The notes beneath the pieces are model-generated. The model was not told the DNA's origin and searched no databases. It saw only the letters and a list, made by a program, of their open reading frames with translations. 64,000 bases of DNA from NCBI RefSeq assembly GCF_054482525.1, contig NZ_CM137006.1. One strand, written 5' to 3'. This document shows, piece after piece, positions 10,023 through 62,687 of this stretch (the first letter of the stretch is position 1; every line of letters begins with the position of its first letter). Made by a program: the position numbers and the translations under genes.

Positions 10023-12527
10023 ATGTCACAAACTATCGACCTGACCCTGGACGGCCTGTCCTGCGGTCACTGCGTTAAACGCGTGAAAGAAAGTCTCGAA
10101 CAGCGCCCGGATGTTGAGCAGGCGGATGTGTCTGTCACTGAAGCGCACGTTACCGGGACTGCCAGTGCAGAACAGCTGATCGAAACCATCAAACAAGCGG
10201 GTTATGACGCATCTGTAAGCCACCCAAAGGCTAAACCGCTGGCGGAGTCATCAATCCCGTCGGAAGCACTGACAGCGGTTTCTGAGGCGCTTCCGGCAGC
10301 GACCGCCGATGACGATGACAGCCAGCAGTTGCTGCTGAGCGGCATGAGCTGCGCCAGCTGTGTCACCCGCGTACAAAATGCGCTGCAAAGCGTACCGGGC
10401 GTCACTCAGGCACGGGTAAACCTGGCGGAGCGTACTGCGCTGGTGATGGGCAGTGCCTCCCCACAAGATTTAGTGCAGGCGGTGGAAAAAGCGGGCTACG
10501 GCGCGGAAGCGATTGAAGATGACGCTAAACGCCGCGAGCGCCAGCAAGAAACCGCCGTCGCTACGATGAAGCGCTTCCGCTGGCAGGCAATTGTCGCACT
10601 GGCGGTGGGTATCCCGGTGATGGTCTGGGGGATGATCGGCGATAACATGATGGTCACCGCCGACAACCGCAGCCTGTGGTTGGTTATCGGCCTGATAACC
10701 CTGGCGGTAATGGTTTTCGCCGGCGGGCATTTTTACCGCAGCGCATGGAAAAGCCTGCTGAACGGTGCAGCGACGATGGATACGCTGGTGGCGCTAGGTA
10801 CTGGCGTGGCGTGGCTCTATTCGATGAGCGTCAACCTGTGGCCGCAGTGGTTCCCGATGGAAGCGCGACATCTTTATTACGAAGCCAGCGCGATGATTAT
10901 CGGTCTGATCAATCTCGGTCATATGCTGGAAGCGCGCGCACGTCAGCGTTCTTCAAAGGCGCTGGAGAAATTACTCGATTTAACCCCACCGACGGCGCGC
11001 CTGGTAACTGACGAAGGTGAAAAAAGCGTGCCGCTGGCAGATGTTCAGCCAGGTATGTTGCTGCGCCTGACGACCGGCGACCGTGTGCCGGTAGATGGTG
11101 AGATTACTCAAGGCGAAGCGTGGCTGGATGAAGCGATGCTGACGGGCGAACCTATCCCGCAGCAAAAAGGCGAAGGCGATAGCGTCCATGCCGGGACAGT
11201 GGTACAGGACGGCAGTGTGCTGTTTCGTGCCAGTGCGGTCGGCAGCCATACTACGCTGTCACGGATCATTCGCATGGTGCGACAGGCCCAGAGCAGCAAG
11301 CCTGAAATCGGCCAACTGGCGGATAAAATCTCCGCCGTGTTTGTGCCGGTAGTGGTAGTCATTGCGCTGATCAGTGCGGCAATCTGGTATTTCTTTGGTC
11401 CGGCACCGCAGATTGTCTATACCCTGGTGATTGCCACCACGGTGCTGATTATCGCCTGTCCGTGTGCGCTGGGACTGGCGACGCCGATGTCGATTATTTC
11501 GGGCGTCGGGCGGGCGGCTGAGTTTGGCGTGCTGGTGCGGGACGCCGACGCGCTGCAACGCGCCAGTACGCTCGACACCGTGGTGTTCGATAAAACCGGG
11601 ACGCTGACCGAAGGGAAGCCGCAGGTTGTCGCAGTGAAAACATTTGCTGATGTTGATGAAGCGCAAGCATTGCGTCTGGCGGCGGCGCTGGAGCAAGGTT
11701 CCAGCCACCCGCTGGCACGGGCGATCCTCGATAAAGCAGGTGATATGCAGCTACCGCAGGTCAACGGTTTCCGCACATTGCGCGGGCTGGGTGTGAGCGG
11801 TGAAGCTGAAGGTCATGCGGTATTGCTGGGCAATCAGGCGCTGTTAAATGACCAGCAAGTTGATACTAAAGCGATTGAGGCAGATATTTCAGCTCAGGCA
11901 TCGCAAGGGGCAACGCCTGTGCTGCTGGCGGTTGACGGGAAAGCGGTAGCCCTGCTGGCTGTACGCGATCCGTTGCGTAGTGATAGCGTGGCGGCGCTGC
12001 AACGCCTGCATAAAGCGGGATATCGTCTGGTGATGCTAACCGGGGATAACCCAACCACCGCCAATGCGATCGCCAAAGAAGCAGGGATTGATGAGGTGAT
12101 AGCCGGGGTGCTACCGGACGGTAAAGCCGAAGCGATCAAACGTCTGCAAAGTGAAGGACGTCAGGTGGCAATGGTGGGCGACGGCATTAACGACGCGCCA
12201 GCGCTGGCCCAGGCGGATGTCGGTATTGCGATGGGTGGCGGCAGTGATGTTGCCATTGAAACCGCGGCGATTACCCTGATGCGCCATAGCCTGATGGGTG
12301 TTGCAGATGCGCTCGCGATTTCCCGCGCAACGCTGCGCAATATGAAGCAGAACCTGCTCGGTGCGTTTATCTACAACAGCATTGGTATTCCGGTCGCCGC
12401 CGGTATTTTGTGGCCGTTCACTGGAACACTGCTTAACCCGGTGGTTGCCGGAGCGGCAATGGCGCTCTCGTCGATTACCGTAGTGAGTAACGCCAACCGA
12501 TTGCTGCGGTTTAAACCGAAGGAATAA
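10023..12527 (+). CDS. copA: Cu(I)-exporting P-type ATPase
   Basis: 834-aa ORF with two N-terminal CxxC metal-binding domains ([16 protein letters not shown]), CPC motif ([12 protein letters not shown]) and DKTGTLT phosphorylation motif. Confidence 0.97.
10223..10229 (+). other. copA: Programmed -1 ribosomal frameshift site in copA (slippery CCCAAAG) producing the short CopA(Z) metallochaperone
   Basis: C CCA AAG at codons 68-69; -1 frame reads CCC AAA GGC TAA, terminating immediately, as described for CopA(Z). Confidence 0.8.
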
Positions 12528-12698
12528 GTACATCATTACGGATGCACTGCTTTAGGGTGGCGCATCCGTTATAGGGAAATTATTCTACGCGACCTTTTTT
12601 GCACGCATACAAACACATCAAACAAGTCCCCAACTCCATTTGCGATTTGCGCCATCCCTCCCCGCGCGCTAGCATGATATTTCACAAAGGGAGGTCGT

Positions 12699-13493
12699 AT
12701 GGATCTGTTGTACCGGGTAAAAACGCTTTGGGCCGCGCTGCGCGGTAATCATTACACCTGGCCTGCTATCGATATCTCTCTTCCCGGCAATCGCCATTTT
12801 CATCTGATTGGCAGTATTCATATGGGCAGCCACGATATGGCTCCCCTGCCCACCCGTTTGCTCAAAAAGCTCAAAAACGCCGATGCGCTGATCGTCGAGG
12901 CGGATGTTTCCACCAGCGATACGCCTTTTGCTAATTTGCCTGCCTGCGAGGCGCTGGAAGAGCGCATTAGCGAGGAGCAACTCCAAAACCTGCAGCACAT
13001 TAGCCAGGAGATGGGCATTTCTACCTCACTCTTTTCTACCCAACCGCTGTGGCAAATCGCGATGGTTCTTCAGGCGACGCAGGCACAAAAACTGGGGCTG
13101 CGGGCAGAATACGGTATCGATTACCAGCTATTGCAGGCGGCGAAGCAACAACATAAACCCGTGATTGAACTGGAAGGGGCAGAAAACCAGATTGCCATGT
13201 TGCTCCAGCTCCCTGACAACGGACTGGCGCTGCTGGACGATACGCTGACCCACTGGCACACCAATGCACGGTTGCTGCAACAAATGATGAGCTGGTGGCT
13301 GAATGCGCCGCCGCAAAATAATGAAATAACGCTGCCTAATACGTTCAGTCAATCGCTGTACGATGTGCTGATGCATCAGCGAAATCTCGCCTGGCGGGAC
13401 AAATTATGCGCCATGCCGCCGGGGCGCTATGTGGTCGCAGTCGGTGCACTACACCTGTATGGAGAAGGGAATTTGCCGCAGATGTTGCGCTAA
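12699..13493 (+). CDS. ybaP: TraB/GumN family protein YbaP
   Basis: 264-aa ORF MDLLYRVKTLWAALRGNHYTWPAIDISLPGNRHFHLIGSIHMG..., recognised as E. coli YbaP. Confidence 0.9.
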   Translation: MDLLYRVKTLWAALRGNHYTWPAIDISLPGNRHFHLIGSIHMGSHDMAPLPTRLLKKLKNADALIVEADVSTSDTPFANLPACEALEERISEEQLQNLQHISQEMGISTSLFSTQPLWQIAMVLQATQAQKLGLRAEYGIDYQLLQAAKQQHKPVIELEGAENQIAMLLQLPDNGLALLDDTLTHWHTNARLLQQMMSWWLNAPPQNNEITLPNTFSQSLYDVLMHQRNLAWRDKLCAMPPGRYVVAVGALHLYGEGNLPQMLR

Positions 13494-13575
13494 AAAAATG
13501 GCCAATATCGCTATTGGCCCGTCAAAGAGGAATTTCATTTTTTTATTATTATGCCGTCACTTTAAGCGACGGTGT
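13494..13575 (-). ncRNA. chiX: ChiX (MicM/SroB) small regulatory RNA
   Basis: Reverse complement reads ACACCGTCGCTTAAAGTGACGGCATAATAATAAAAAAATGAAATTCCTCTTTGACGGGCCAATAGCGATATTGGCCATTTTTTT, matching my recollection of ChiX, including the terminator hairpin GGCCAATAGCGATATTGGCC plus U-tract; located in the ybaP-ybaK spacer as in K-12. Confidence 0.85.
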
Positions 13576-13681
13576 AACTCGATTGTCGCTCAATCTCACC
13601 ATCCTGCCAATACTCTTAGGCAAGATGACTCTTTTTTTTGGACCGCCATCAGGCGTATGCTTGCTTCGTTTTTTTGTTTAA

Positions 13682-14176
<495 letters not shown>

Positions 14177-14212
14177 GCATTGTGCCGGATGCAAATATCC
14201 GGCACTTTCGGA

Positions 14213-15865
14213 TTACTGCCAGCTCACCTCACCTTTCGGTTCATAGACACTCACATCCAGCGGCGAGCTCTTCTGGATATACGCTTTCAGCACTTCGGCA
14301 TCAATAAAGCCGGTATTCACATAGCCCGGTTTGTTATCAAGGCGCGGATAGCCATCACCGCCGGTGGCATTGAAGTTTAATGTCGCCATACGATAAGTTT
14401 TCGCCGGATCGACCGGTTCGCCTTTGATTTTAAGGTCGTCCAGTTTGCCGCCTTTCGCCACAAAGCTAACGTTAGCAAATTGCGGGTAGGCACCTGAATC
14501 TGGCTTCATCTGCGCAACGGCGGTCAGGTAATCAATCACCTCTTTCCCGGTCATGTCGGCATACACCACCACATTGCCGAATGGCTGCACTTTCAGCACG
14601 TTTTTATAGCTGATATCGCCTGCTTCGATAGAATCACGAATTCCGCCTCCACTCATCACCGCAAAGTCAGCACCAGTGCGATCCATTTGGGCTGCCAGAA
14701 TCAACCGCCCCATATTGGTCTGTACAAAACGCACTTTGTCACGATCGCCTTCCAGACGACCATTGGTTTCGCCTATTTTCACTTCCAGCTGCGCTTTGCC
14801 TTTGTTCTGGAACGGTGATAACAGCGAGATCATTTGCTGGTTTTCAGCGATTTCAGGAGTGTAAAGCACGCGCTCGCTTTTCCCGTCTTCCCAGGTAACT
14901 TTCTTCTTCAGGTTCACCGGAATCAGCTGGTAGTTAACCATTTTCATTTCGCCATTACGAAACTCAAAATCAGCCCGTCCCACGTATTTGCCCCACTCAT
15001 GCGCCTGCACAATCCAGATGCCGTTTTGTTGATCCGGTTTGCATGGCGTACCCGGCACGTAATCGACCTGTTTTTTGTTTTCTGCCGCCATGCAGACCGG
15101 ATCTTGCGAGTGACCACCGACGATCATCGCCAGCGATCCGGCAGGCAGCGCGCGCGCCATCTCCACATCGCCCGGTGCGTTAGAGCCGTGCTCACCATTG
15201 TCGTAATGCCCCATATGGGTCGCCGCGATAATAATGTCTGGCTTTTCTGTCTGTTGCAGCTCCTGAATCACCAGCTTCGCTTCATCGGCGGGCTTACGGA
15301 ACTCAATATCGGTGAAGTTTTCTGGGTTGCCTAACTTCGCTGTGTCATCCGTCGTCAGGCCAATAACGGCAATTTTCAGATCCTGACGCTTAAACAGCGC
15401 CCATGGTTTAAACAGGCGCTCGCCGGTACTTTTCTGGTAGATATTGGCAGAAAGTAACGGGAACTTTGCCCACTTTTCCTGCTGGCGTAATACGGTGAGC
15501 GGGTTATCAAATTCATGATTACCGATTGCCATCGCATCGTAACCCACCAGATTCATGCCGCGAAAATCAGGTTCGGCATCCTGTAAGTCAGACTCGGGCA
15601 CGCCAGTGTTAATGTCGCCACCGGAAAGTAGCAGCACGCTACCGCCTTCAGCCGCAACCTCTTTGCGGATACCATCCACCAGCGTTTTTTGCGCCGCCAG
15701 ACCATATTCGCCATATTCATTGCGCCAAAAATGCCCATGATGATCATTGGTGTGCAGAACTGTAATTTTGTAGGTTTTATCCTGCTCATACGCCAGAGCA
15801 GTTTCACTCGCCAGTGTAAATGTGGTTAACAGTGCTAACGCCACGCCCCGCTGCAATAATTTCAT
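14213..15865 (-). CDS. ushA: Periplasmic 5'-nucleotidase / UDP-sugar hydrolase
   Basis: 550-aa ORF with signal peptide and metallophosphatase motifs (VLHTNDHHGHF, GNHEFD). Confidence 0.95.
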   Translation of the reverse strand: MKLLQRGVALALLTTFTLASETALAYEQDKTYKITVLHTNDHHGHFWRNEYGEYGLAAQKTLVDGIRKEVAAEGGSVLLLSGGDINTGVPESDLQDAEPDFRGMNLVGYDAMAIGNHEFDNPLTVLRQQEKWAKFPLLSANIYQKSTGERLFKPWALFKRQDLKIAVIGLTTDDTAKLGNPENFTDIEFRKPADEAKLVIQELQQTEKPDIIIAATHMGHYDNGEHGSNAPGDVEMARALPAGSLAMIVGGHSQDPVCMAAENKKQVDYVPGTPCKPDQQNGIWIVQAHEWGKYVGRADFEFRNGEMKMVNYQLIPVNLKKKVTWEDGKSERVLYTPEIAENQQMISLLSPFQNKGKAQLEVKIGETNGRLEGDRDKVRFVQTNMGRLILAAQMDRTGADFAVMSGGGIRDSIEAGDISYKNVLKVQPFGNVVVYADMTGKEVIDYLTAVAQMKPDSGAYPQFANVSFVAKGGKLDDLKIKGEPVDPAKTYRMATLNFNATGGDGYPRLDNKPGYVNTGFIDAEVLKAYIQKSSPLDVSVYEPKGEVSWQ

Positions 15866-19220: not shown

Positions 19221-19350
19221 CGTGGTTGCCGGATGTAAAATATGAAAAATATGTAGGCATGATAAGACGCGCCAGCGTCGCATCAGGCATCGAGAGCCAA
19301 ATGCCAGATGCGGCGTGAACGCCTTATCTGGCCTACGAACCGACGATAAC
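19221..19350. repeat. REP/BIME repetitive extragenic palindromes between convergent ybaL and gsk
   Basis: Tandem imperfect palindromes of the GCCGGATG...CATCAGGC / GCCAGATGCGGCGTGAACGCCTTATCTGGCCTAC type. Confidence 0.75.
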
Positions 19351-23649: not shown

Positions 23650-24358
23650 ATATCCTCCGGCATAGCCGGAGGTTTTTCAAATGCGCCTATAAGGCTCTCT
23701 TACCAGCCGCGCCCTAACAGGCGCACACGATCTGACATTTGCATCCAACTTCGTTACTTACGGCCCGTAAACGGGCTGCCCGGATAGGGAATCGATAACT
23801 GCTCTCCCATTTTATCCTCTTCAAGCTGGTGCTTTATGTAATCCTGTATCTTCGCCGTGTTCTTACCCACCGTATCGACGTAGTACCCTCTGCACCAGAA
23901 CTCCCTGTTCCTGTATTTGAATTTCAAATCACCAAACTGCTCGTAAAGCATCAGACTGCTTTTCCCTTTCAGATATCCCATAAAGCCGGATACGCTCATT
24001 TTGGGCGGGATCTCCACAAGCATATGGATATGATCTGCACAGCATTCAGCTTCCAGAATCCGTACACTTTTCCACTCACACAGCTTTCTCAAAATACTGC
24101 CTATTGCTCTACGCTTCTCTCTGTAGAACACCTGTCTTCGGTATTTTGGCGCAAAAACTATGTGATATTTACAGTTCCATCGGGTGTGCGCTAAGCTCTT
24201 TTCGTTCCCCATTGGGACCCCCTTTTGATTTCTTGTTTGACACTTGCAGTTGCCAGACCGCAAGGTGTTTTAACAAATCAAAAGGGGTTTTAATAACTGG
24301 CTTAAAGCTGAAAGCTTTCCGGAACCCCCAGCCTAGCTGGGGGTTTTCTGTGCACAAA
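23650..24358 (-). mobile_element. IS200-family insertion sequence (IS200/IS605 family), approximate boundaries
   Basis: Contains the Y1 (HUH) transposase gene; hairpin AACCCCCAGCCTAGCTGGGGGTT (24322-24344) upstream of tnpA resembles the IS200 left-end stem-loop; the htpG-adk spacer is ~890 bp here versus ~180 bp as I recall in K-12, i.e. ~710 bp extra. Ends are estimated to +/-40 bp. Confidence 0.75.
23754..24212 (-). CDS. tnpA: IS200 transposase TnpA (Y1 HUH transposase)
   Basis: 152-aa product from internal Met: MGNEKSLAHTRWNCKYHIVFAPKYRRQVFYREKRRAIGSILRKLCEWKSVRILEAECCADHIHMLVEIPPKMS..., near-identical to IS200 TnpA as I recall it. Confidence 0.9.
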   Translation of the reverse strand: MGNEKSLAHTRWNCKYHIVFAPKYRRQVFYREKRRAIGSILRKLCEWKSVRILEAECCADHIHMLVEIPPKMSVSGFMGYLKGKSSLMLYEQFGDLKFKYRNREFWCRGYYVDTVGKNTAKIQDYIKHQLEEDKMGEQLSIPYPGSPFTGRK

Positions 24359-27364: not shown

Positions 27365-29296
27365 TCAAATGGGGCGGATACTTTCTTCATCCAGCTCCGC
27401 ATCGAAGAACCGACGCAGAGTCTGAATATTATTATCCGCAATAATGGACTCGCGCGCCTGCGCAAGTTTTTCTTCGTATATCGCCTGACGCCATTCCAGC
27501 GGCGTACGCACCGCGGGATTATCATCTTCAACGATAGTCAGTTCAACCGTTGAACCTTTTAACGTGCTCAACGCTTCAGCCAGTTTTTGCTGTGCGCCGC
27601 GGTTGTTCAAATGCCGCTGAGAGGAGCGCAAATGCAGACATACTGCGTTGTCGCTCTCCTCTTTCCAGGCATTTAAGGCCACCTGTTCGACCAGTTTTGG
27701 TAGCGAAAGTTGGCTCACCTGTGCCGCCCACGGGTCGCGCTCAATGGCTTCTGCCGCCAGCTTCGCCGCCAGTTCCGGCGTTTTTTCATGTTCCAGCGCT
27801 TTTTTTAGCGCCTTCGGCGTGGCGACCACTTCTTTTTGCTGCATCACTGGAGTGGTGGCCTTCCAGCGATACGCTTCTTTTTTGGCTGGCGCTTTTTCCA
27901 GCGCCGATGGCACCGGACGCGCCTGAACGCGATCGGTGACCGAAGCCAGTCTTTCCAGCGCAGCGTTATTCACCGGCCGCGCGCGGGTAGCGGCTGCCGG
28001 TTCACTCTTTTTTGCTTTGGTTGCTCCCTGCACGCGCTGCAACTGCTGGCGCGCCGCCAGCACCTGGCTGGTGGTTTCCGGGAGCGGTACAGTCGGTGCC
28101 TGCTGCGGCGCTGATTGCGGTTGCGGCGGCACCTGGGTTGGCGTCATTACTGCCGTTGGCGCGACGGGCGCAAAGGACTGGCGTGGCACTTCTGGCTCAG
28201 GCAGCGGCATACGCGGATGGAACGCCAGCGCGCGCAACAGCGTCATCTCAACGCCCATACGGCGGTCTGGCGCATACGGTAATTCTTTGCGACCAATCAA
28301 CAGCGTCTGATAGTAAAGCTGAATATCCGTCGGCGGTATGGTGCGCGCCAGTTCACGCATCCGCAGCTCGATGGCGGCCATATCGTTGCCAAGTGCAGCA
28401 GGCGAAAGTTGTACCATCGCAATACGATGCAACAGACCGAGCATTTCCACCAGCAACGCTTCCCACTCGATACCACGGGCAGCGGCTTCATTAATCAGCG
28501 CCATTACGCGCTCGCCGTTGGCCTCGACCATCGCTTCAACCAGCGACAGCGCCTGATCGTCGTCAAGCGTACCCAGCATCGCACTGACCGCCTGGGTTGA
28601 AACCTGGCCGTCACCGCTGGCAATCGCCTGGTCGGTCAGACTTAAGGCATCTCGCAGGCTGCCTTCAGCGGCGCGCGCCAGTAATTGCAACGCCCGCGGC
28701 TCGTGAGCGATATGTTCTTCGTTGAGGATGTGCTCAAGCTGATGGCGAATTTGCTCGACATCCAGCGCCTTGAGATGAAATTGCAAACAGCGTGACAAAA
28801 TCGTCACCGGCAATTTCTGTGGATCGGTCGTCGCCAGCAGAAACTTAACGTGCTCCGGCGGCTCTTCAAGGGTTTTTAACAGTGCGTTAAAGCTGTGGCG
28901 CGACAGCATATGCACTTCGTCGATCAGATAAACTTTGAAACGACCACGCGCCGGAGCGTACTGGACGTTATCCAGCAGGTCGCGAGTGTCTTCAACTTTA
29001 GTGCGCGAGGCGGCGTCGATTTCAATCAGATCGACAAAGCGCCCCTGCTCGATTTCACGACAGTTATCGCACACGCCGCACGGCGTCGCGGTAATGCCGG
29101 TTTCGCAGTTTAGTCCCTTCGCCAGCAGTCGGGCGATAGAGGTTTTTCCGACGCCACGGGTGCCGGAAAAAAGATAAGCATGATGAATACGCCCTAACGA
29201 CAAGCCGTTCGCCAGTGCGGTCAGCACATGTTCCTGGCCGACGACGTCAGCAAAGGTTTGTGGGCGCCATTTTCGGGCTAAGACCTGATAACTCAT
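27365..29296 (-). CDS. dnaX: DNA polymerase III subunits tau and gamma
   Basis: 643-aa ORF with AAA+ clamp-loader motifs (GTRGVGKTS). Confidence 0.97.
   Translation of the reverse strand: MSYQVLARKWRPQTFADVVGQEHVLTALANGLSLGRIHHAYLFSGTRGVGKTSIARLLAKGLNCETGITATPCGVCDNCREIEQGRFVDLIEIDAASRTKVEDTRDLLDNVQYAPARGRFKVYLIDEVHMLSRHSFNALLKTLEEPPEHVKFLLATTDPQKLPVTILSRCLQFHLKALDVEQIRHQLEHILNEEHIAHEPRALQLLARAAEGSLRDALSLTDQAIASGDGQVSTQAVSAMLGTLDDDQALSLVEAMVEANGERVMALINEAAARGIEWEALLVEMLGLLHRIAMVQLSPAALGNDMAAIELRMRELARTIPPTDIQLYYQTLLIGRKELPYAPDRRMGVEMTLLRALAFHPRMPLPEPEVPRQSFAPVAPTAVMTPTQVPPQPQSAPQQAPTVPLPETTSQVLAARQQLQRVQGATKAKKSEPAAATRARPVNNAALERLASVTDRVQARPVPSALEKAPAKKEAYRWKATTPVMQQKEVVATPKALKKALEHEKTPELAAKLAAEAIERDPWAAQVSQLSLPKLVEQVALNAWKEESDNAVCLHLRSSQRHLNNRGAQQKLAEALSTLKGSTVELTIVEDDNPAVRTPLEWRQAIYEEKLAQARESIIADNNIQTLRRFFDAELDEESIRPI
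27971..28013 (-). other. dnaX: dnaX programmed -1 frameshift signal (A AAA AAG heptamer plus downstream stem-loop) yielding gamma
   Basis: Minus strand reads GCA AAA AAG AGT GA with A-AAA-AAG at codons 429-430, then stem-loop CCGGCAGCCGCTACCCGCGCGCGGCCGG; -1 frame gives Lys-Lys-Glu-stop. Confidence 0.9.
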
Positions 29297-44826: not shown

Positions 44827-44940
44827 GGGTGGGGGCCCTGCCAGCTACATCCCGGCACACGCGTCATCTGCCTTGGCTGCTTCCTTCCGGACCTGACCTG
44901 GTAAACAGAGTAGCGTTGCGGGAGAACCAACAGAGCCCCC
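44827..44940 (-). ncRNA. ffs: 4.5S RNA (signal recognition particle RNA)
   Basis: Minus strand reads GGGGGCTCTGTTGGTTCTCCCGCAACGCTACTCTGTTTACCAGGTCAGGTCCGGAAGGAAGCAGCCAAGGCAGATGACGCGTGTGCCGGGATGTAGCTGGCAGGGCCCCCACC, the E. coli 4.5S RNA; overlapping track ORFs are spurious. Confidence 0.95.
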
Positions 44941-62500: not shown

Positions 62501-62583
62501 AGAGCTCTCTCTTAGTTTAATTTCCGCCAGGTAATCAGATGACACGACTGTGCTTCACGCCATCTATTAACATGTACGTCAGT

Positions 62584-62610
62584 ATATGGGGATGTTTCCC
62601 CCACATTCAA
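62584..62610 (-). promoter_or_regulatory. Sigma-32 heat-shock promoter of lon
   Basis: Minus strand reads TTGAATG (-35) ... CCCCATAT (-10). Confidence 0.7.
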
Positions 62611-62687
62611 CGCCGAGAATAGAGGAAAAATTAAAGGGGAGATAAAATCCCCCCTTTTTGGTTAACTAATTGTATGGGAATGGTTAA

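Follow-up and report, generated by a model that had tools for sequence, protein, structure and literature searches.

The 64,000-nt stretch of E. coli chromosomal DNA analysed here (the window; contig NZ_CM137006.1 of assembly GCF_054482525.1) raises, at the 3' end of its ybaP gene, the question of which gene lies on the opposite strand, how far this gene reaches into ybaP and whether the hairpin at its end terminates ybaP transcription as well. An earlier note had placed the small RNA ChiX there, antisense to ybaP, at 13494-13575. When the whole window was scanned against Rfam 15 (cmscan), six matches exceeded the curated thresholds, among them RF00368 (sroB, the ChiX/MicM/RybC family) at 13492..13575 on the minus strand (E=1.8e-10). 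The search with the ChiX family model, which the note had named as a check, returned the family at full length, i.e. model positions 1-83 of 83 without truncation, and with 82.1 bits as compared to a gathering score of 44 bits. The 84-nt RNA encoded at this site (ChiX, also MicM/SroB/RybC; its nucleotide n is window position 13576 - n) is 100% identical to that of K-12 b4585, and the 281 bp from 13440 to 13720 equal the K-12 sequence except for a single base inside ybaP, where the change looks synonymous. In the K-12 MG1655 annotation, relative to which the orientation of the window is reversed, chiX (b4585) locates to 507204..507287 (+) and ybaP to 507286..508080 (-), the two overlapping by 2 nt. 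Term-seq work showed K-12 507287 (+) to be a very strong 3' end under three of three growth conditions, classified as 'primary chiX, antisense ybaP' (Adams et al. 2021, PMC7815308, supplementary file 1), and this position corresponds to window 13492. The antisense ChiX gene is thus borne out by the RF00368 score, the K-12 identity and the mapped 3' end, whereby the 5' end given earlier (13575) is exact and the other boundary (13494) fell short by 2 nt.

The locus is ChiX itself rather than a relative, as each defining feature that could be tested was found. With ChiX of K-12 it shares the sequence, the length of 84 nt, the ybaK/ybaP context, the 2-nt overlap, the 5' hairpin, the AAN linker, the seed, the terminator, the U7 tail and the complementarity to both chiP and the chbBC spacer, and the RNA itself shows no difference from the K-12 copy. 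That the family match arose by chance, or marks a decayed, non-functional chiX copy, has a vanishingly small probability and was ruled out, given that the sequence is identical to the functional K-12 gene including its promoter region, that the RF00368 score is almost twice the family threshold and that chiX is present in the window as a single copy at the syntenic site. Among complete E. coli genomes, chiX was found in 5422 of 5426, with at least 99% identity in 5011. Both the identification and the overlap with ybaP are already known, ChiX ranking among the most thoroughly studied sRNAs of enterobacteria and the overlap standing in the K-12 reference annotation. It is regarded as nearly certain that 13492-13575 (minus) is E. 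coli chiX, with the promoter, the Hfq contacts, the chiP and chb roles and the overlap reading as proposed in the following.

The gene resides between ybaK and ybaP and is oriented opposite to both. Convergent with it is ybaP (12699..13493, plus; ORF list and RefSeq annotation), encoding a TraB/PrgY/GumN family protein of 264 aa whose PF01963 domain (147 bits, Pfam) extends to residue 264, while ybaK (13697..14176, plus; ORF list, PF04073 and annotation) is divergent from chiX and encodes the Cys-tRNA(Pro) deacylase, a tRNA-editing domain protein (PF04073, Pfam). Further out, copA (10023-12527, plus) and ushA (14213-15865, minus) flank this group. The expectation that an annotation confined to open reading frames would miss chiX held for strain PCN033, which is 100% identical to the window over 13300-13800 and for which the RefSeq/PGAP annotation of this region lists copA, ybaP, ybaK and ushA only. 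In non-K-12 E. coli, chiX is omitted by the RefSeq automatic annotation despite an identical sequence. Next to this, the spacer between copA and ybaP (12528-12698) comprises only 171 bp and homology to K-12 stops 86 bp upstream of ybaP; K-12 carries ybaQ (b0483, an HTH regulator) between ybaP and copA, which is lacking there in the window, as in PCN033. On the other side, the convergent pair ushA(-)/ybaK(+) shares a strong hairpin (14182-14205, dG about -17) in its 36-nt spacer (14177-14212). The ushA 3' end was mapped to K-12 506602 (Term-seq, PMC7815308), i.e. window 14177, where it adjoins the stop codon of ybaK, and no U-tract follows the hairpin, which is hence a candidate for a non-canonical or bidirectional terminator or for a processing stop.

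Folding of ChiX yielded a structure of dG -24.1 kcal/mol (z -3.9), which beats 199 of 200 dinucleotide shuffles. Its 5' stem-loop (nt 4-22, 13554..13572 on the minus strand; MFE fold) is followed by an A/U-rich linker, nearly invariant in the cross-species alignment, in which counting identified four in-register AAN motifs, AAU AAU AAA AAA (nt 26-37, 13539..13550, minus). The seed or target-pairing region UCCUCUUUGACGGG (nt 45-58, 13518..13531, minus), as defined by target complementarity, leads into the Rho-independent terminator GGCCAAUA-GCGA-UAUUGGCC (nt 57-76, 13500..13519, minus; terminator scan, dG -11.0), an 8-bp GC-anchored stem, and the A plus seven U's behind it (13492..13499, minus) reach to the Term-seq 3' end. 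Judged by these motifs, a Rho-independent terminator with U7 and four AAN motifs, ChiX belongs to the Hfq-dependent class II sRNAs, for which, in the case of ChiX, the poly-U tail was reported to bind the proximal and the four AAN motifs the distal face of Hfq (PMC7987339). Within the linker, 13539-13545 reads AAAAAAA in the window and in K-12 as compared to AAAAAUA in several other Escherichia genomes (loci L004, L028, L054, L058, L077 and L088), a polymorphism that falls within the AAN region. Upstream of the gene, the promoter scan identified a candidate sigma-70 promoter (13582..13610, minus) consisting of a -35 element TTGGCA (13610-13605), a 17-nt spacer and a -10 element GACAAT (13587-13582), the latter 6 nt before the +1 at 13575; this is a consensus match, of which one was found as compared to 0.7 expected in shuffles. 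Among the loci listed, the upstream element GAGCGACAAT is kept in Enterobacteriaceae genera, but not in Serratia, Rahnella or Proteus.

For the role of the RNA, complementarity to the two established targets was examined using the K-12 target sequences, not those of the window strain. Over 12 nt, the ChiX seed is perfectly complementary to each of the two targets. The chiP (ybfM) site lies in the 5' UTR at 8-19 nt ahead of the AUG, which places it on the Shine-Dalgarno sequence, and the second site lies in the chbB-chbC spacer. A complement of this length was reached by 5 of 1000 (chiP) and 8 of 1000 (chbBC spacer) dinucleotide shuffles of ChiX. Full-length RNAduplex predictions of ChiX with its targets were set aside as they gave long-looped, inflated structures, for which reason the length of the exact complement, together with the shuffles, was relied on. 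Earlier work described ChiX as constitutively made and silencing chiP, with the chbBC spacer acting as a destabilising decoy (bioRxiv 10.1101/2021.05.11.443692; PMC7815308). The suggested mechanism assumes that chiX is transcribed, probably constitutively, from the sigma-70 promoter at 13582-13610 and that the transcript ends at its Rho-independent terminator, with the U-tail reaching 2 nt into the ybaP stop codon. Hfq is bound by the poly-U tail (proximal face) and the four AAN motifs (distal face). The seed UCCUCUUUGACGGG, single-stranded and adjoining the terminator stem on its 5' side, pairs with the chiP Shine-Dalgarno region, whereby the chitoporin is silenced. Upon induction of the chb operon by chitosugars, the chbB-chbC spacer RNA pairs with the same seed and causes ChiX decay, by which the repression of chiP is relieved. 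Identity, coordinates, structure and conservation, two-target complementarity and the conserved overlap were established here, and the mode of Hfq binding, constitutive expression, chiP repression and decoy-induced decay are taken from the literature.

In order to follow the locus across species, one genome per species was scanned with the seed-plus-stem pattern GAAATTCCTCTTTGACNGGCC, which matched at least 120 loci from about 25 genera of Enterobacterales; conservation of the seed and of the first stem bases within this set is circular, as both are part of the search pattern. Using YbaP and YbaK of the window as tblastn queries, the order ybaK(-)/chiX(+)/ybaP(-) was found in all 116 non-Proteus loci of the 121 listed, with the five Proteus loci differing. 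The ybaK-chiX-ybaP synteny was stated likewise in PMC4355480 and PMC3384567, and the Proteus ChiX homologue was treated in PMC4355480. Among 101 unique homologues, the terminator stem shows compensatory changes from A-U to G-C at two pairs, in 13 and 6 sequences, respectively. The 5' hairpin is present as 78 different sequences, each of at least 5 pairs, with a median dG of -10.7 and a median z of -2.55 in per-sequence folding. This procedure was used because RNAalifold, run on a plain MAFFT alignment, recovered the terminator only, having missed the variable and hence misaligned 5' hairpin.

How far the two genes interlock follows from the bases themselves. The ybaP stop codon TAA occupies 13491-13493 and the last two U's of ChiX occupy 13492-13493, i.e. 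they are the complement of the stop-codon AA, and therefore the genes share 2 nt and do more than abut. Of the two arrangements allowed for by the earlier note, abutment or overlap, it is the overlap, of 2 nt as in the K-12 annotation, that applies. To place this in the cross-species set, each ybaP frame was walked to its first stop, whereby 121 loci were examined. In 103 of the 121 loci listed, the frame closes with a TAA that shares exactly 2 nt with the end of the ChiX U-run; this group spans Escherichia as well as Serratia and Rahnella, and its YbaP proteins are 58-98% identical. In eight further listed loci a gap of 3-138 nt separates ybaP from chiX, while the ybaP frame enters chiX by 17 nt in four and by 87 nt in one. 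The latter five loci (L027, L029, L061, L078 and L105; Phytobacter, Kosakonia and some Enterobacter-like genomes) carry a G in place of the A after the ChiX U-run, which lets the ybaP frame run on into chiX by 17 nt, or by 87 nt in L027, and the coding sequence there overlaps the terminator hairpin of the sRNA.

Across the loci listed, the tail of YbaP after the conserved GEGNLPxxL comprises 1 to 5 residues and yields 42 distinct C-terminal 14-mers; these variable tails nonetheless end at the TAA within the complement of the U-tail. The other two plus-strand frames stay open well past chiX and meet their stops at 13681 and 13713, hence a frameshift close to the ybaP stop would lengthen the protein considerably. 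Two mechanical open reading frames in these frames (13406-13681 and 13429-13713, plus; 91 and 94 aa) cross the anti-chiX region and are probably not genes. The overlap may accordingly be read as genome compaction, in which the ybaP frame would run to the first in-frame stop, a TAA that the strand opposite the ChiX U-tail provides, and this TAA would be kept in frame because long extensions are selected against; we infer this from the distribution of stops, and some of the 103 of 121 could be due to phylogenetic inertia. A comparable layout is found in K-12 with arcZ, which ends at 3350697 (+), and the convergent arcB, whose coding sequence runs from 3350689 (-), the overlap being 9 nt (locus L125). 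As with chiX and ybaP, an sRNA terminator lies in the end of a convergent gene, but arcZ belongs to another sRNA family and the overlap is larger; sRNA terminators placed within the stop region of a convergent gene are hence a recurring layout. In about 85% of the species examined, among the loci listed, the ybaP stop codon is a physical part of the Hfq-binding tail of ChiX, so that ChiX is hit whenever the end of ybaP is mutated or deleted by engineering, and vice versa.

The earlier note had further considered that the ChiX hairpin probably terminates ybaP from the other side as well. In the ChiX sense (minus strand), the hairpin (dG -11.0 kcal/mol) is followed by AUUUUUUU with 7 U in 8 nt and a T-tail weight of 2.82; in the ybaP sense (plus strand) it forms with dG -10.1 kcal/mol and is followed by CGUCAAAG with 1 U in 8 nt and a T-tail weight of 0.33. 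The latter flank lies opposite the conserved ChiX seed, to which it is complementary, and therefore cannot be U-rich. A canonical bidirectional terminator is defined by an A-tract upstream and a U-tract downstream of the hairpin, and with one U among the eight nucleotides of CGUCAAAG the U-tract is lacking in the ybaP direction. The consensus scan likewise reported no plus-strand intrinsic terminator at the ChiX hairpin, but the minus-strand one only. As a canonical terminator of ybaP, the hairpin is therefore unsupported. No other intrinsic terminator was found by the scan on the ybaP strand until a weak one a short distance before ybaK (13650-13663), and in the lineages with a gap between ybaP and chiX a separate ybaP terminator was found in none of eight. 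An extended plus-strand A7-U7 structure around the hairpin, followed by UUAUUAU (dG -14.3, T-weight 1.33), was considered as ybaP terminator and rejected because of its closing stem of A-U pairs only, its 17-nt internal loop and its weak tail.

Experimental 3' ends were consulted in published tables. The Term-seq tables hold no ybaP-sense 3' end at this locus, and the ybaK 3' end was likewise undetected (PMC7815308), which suggests low expression of both genes; in the SMRT-Cappable-seq supplements, ybaP, chiX and ybaK are without mention. That the hairpin nevertheless acts as a bidirectional terminator is possible though somewhat doubtful, and two forms of this idea have to be told apart: a canonical, strong one and a weak one, in which the hairpin would pause the ybaP polymerase until it collides head-on with the dense flow of polymerases leaving the strong chiX promoter, about 90-120 bp ahead. 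The strong form conflicts with the single U in 8 nt, the T-weight of 0.33 as compared to 2.82 and the plus-strand scan; the ybaP-sense flank is fixed as seed complement in all 121 loci listed. Common to both forms is that the hairpin also forms in the ybaP-sense RNA, starting 6 nt after the ybaP stop, and that between this stop and the far side of chiX no alternative intrinsic terminator was found in E. coli and the eight gap lineages. ChiX furthermore accounts for about 5.3 million of about 8 million RIL-seq fragments, an abundance so extreme that the convergent traffic has to be heavy, and the convergent ushA/ybaK pair has its Term-seq 3' end at a hairpin that is without a U-tract. The weak form has against it that neither the Term-seq nor the SMRT-Cappable-seq tables give a ybaP-sense 3' end and that ybaP-sense RIL-seq fragments start throughout K-12 507215-507289 (minus strand), i.e. 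beyond the hairpin.

Precedents for the weak form come from convergent gene pairs of E. coli, whose bidirectional terminators were reportedly described by Ju and colleagues in 2019. For such pairs, terminators that 'do not resemble intrinsic terminators' were documented and a collision model was proposed (Wang et al. 2022, bioRxiv 10.1101/2022.10.23.513370). According to this collision-type model (Liu laboratory), both 3' ends lie at the shared hairpin, and termination is Rho-independent with an efficiency that depends on convergent transcription. The pair chiX/ybaP resembles these cases in that one hairpin is shared, one direction is unlike an intrinsic terminator and opposing transcription is heavy; it differs in that one direction is a textbook intrinsic terminator, that the partner is an 84-nt sRNA gene with its promoter about 90 bp beyond the hairpin and that only the ChiX 3' end is mapped in the Term-seq and SMRT-Cappable-seq tables, as compared to both ends in collision-type terminators. 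By this analogy, pausing at the hairpin and head-on collision would be a plausible way for ybaP transcription to end.

RNA that is untranslated past a stop codon represents the standard situation for Rho loading. A further explanation, held as tentative and with no more weight than that of a bidirectional terminator, thus assumes that ybaP ends by Rho-dependent termination, or by diffuse collisions, past its stop, with the hairpin merely shielding the processed 3' end against 3'-5' exonucleases and marking the end of the mature mRNA without causing termination. The ybaP RNA is indeed untranslated past its stop codon, and Rho-terminated 3' ends were reported to be trimmed back, unstable or hard to detect (Adams et al., PMC7815308). 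On the opposite strand, Rho does act at this locus: K-12 507468 (+) was given a Rho score of 3.7 (p = 4e-10), with upstream/downstream coverage of 1492/22 without and 2100/115 with bicyclomycin (Adams et al. 2021, supplementary file 2, PMC7815308). By coordinate arithmetic this peak corresponds to window 13311 (minus), antisense inside ybaP and ~181 nt downstream of the ChiX 3' end, which implies that a fraction of chiX transcription passes its terminator. The mapped 3' end of ushA/ybaK at a hairpin lacking U's fits a shielding role, too. However, the Adams table gives no Rho region on the ybaP-sense strand here, and the 3' region is A/U-rich rather than C-rich and hence a poor rut site.

In addition, it may be asked whether ybaP transcripts end near the hairpin at all or run across the whole of chiX, which is encoded on the other strand, and perhaps on into ybaK, thereby forming a non-contiguous operon ybaP-[chiX]-ybaK. 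If so, the 3' region of this mRNA would be perfectly complementary to ChiX. We consider such read-through unlikely, although several observations are in line with it: ybaP and ybaK share a strand and are separated by 203 bp in every non-Proteus locus listed, the promoter scan gave no plus-strand promoter-like site for ybaK in 13200-13900, and the first plus-strand terminator is the weak one at 13650-13663. The simple promoter scan is insensitive, though, the strong convergent promoter should stop most of the read-through, and the 3' ends of ybaP and ybaK missing from Term-seq point to low expression.

RIL-seq contributes to both sides. Under the label ybaP.EST3UTR, abundant fragments were reported on the minus strand at K-12 507215-507289 (507204-507428 in one replicate), with ArcZ and SdsR as chimera partners, and the authors stated that 'ybaP.EST3UTR was considered to be ChiX' (PMC10954441). 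ChiX proper is listed there on the plus strand, with about 5.3 million fragments (PMC10954441). The minus strand is the ybaP-sense one, so that the labelled fragments run from the stop codon across the anti-chiX region, and the ybaP-sense region K-12 507189-507289 (-) corresponds to window 13490-13588 (+). The signal, about 0.2% of that of ChiX, could be a strand artefact or a real read-through RNA, and fragments of the latter kind, if real, argue against efficient termination at the hairpin. In favour of an artefact are its small size, its limits, which in most replicates coincide almost exactly with the ChiX coordinates, and the decision of the RIL-seq authors themselves to count it as ChiX. 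In favour of a real RNA is that SdsR nt 33-42 are perfectly complementary, over 10 nt, to UGCGCUAAAA (window 13486-13495, plus), a segment that includes the ybaP stop (4 of 200 shuffles), with ChiX offering SdsR no complementarity beyond chance; the SdsR complementarity thus favours the ybaP-sense strand, whereas that of ArcZ fails to tell the strands apart.

Going one step further, ybaP mRNA might pass the hairpin and cross chiX such that its 3' UTR constitutes a cis-encoded, perfectly complementary ChiX partner kept across Enterobacterales along with the stop codon that lies within the ChiX tail, an idea to which we assign a very low probability. Were it true, the ybaP 3' UTR would be a built-in ChiX sponge, or a route by which ChiX controls ybaP and ybaK, and the 'ybaP.EST3UTR' fragments (PMC10954441) would represent real anti-ChiX RNA that is bound to Hfq and pairs with SdsR and ArcZ. 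For the handling of interactome data at chiX/ybaP it means that a strand-blind procedure can mislabel ybaP-sense reads as ChiX.

The remaining five Rfam matches of the window lie elsewhere: the Hfq-binding RNA STnc490 (24222-24345, minus; RF01405, 146 bits, full length), the sRNA sraA (62572-62667, plus; RF02029, 106.7 bits, full length), the programmed -1 ribosomal frameshift element of dnaX (27968-28032, minus; RF00382, 96.8 bits), a naRNA4/REP-type element (19256-19333, minus; RF02564, 74.3 bits) and ffs, the 4.5S SRP RNA gene (44836-44932, minus; RF00169, 68.1 bits).
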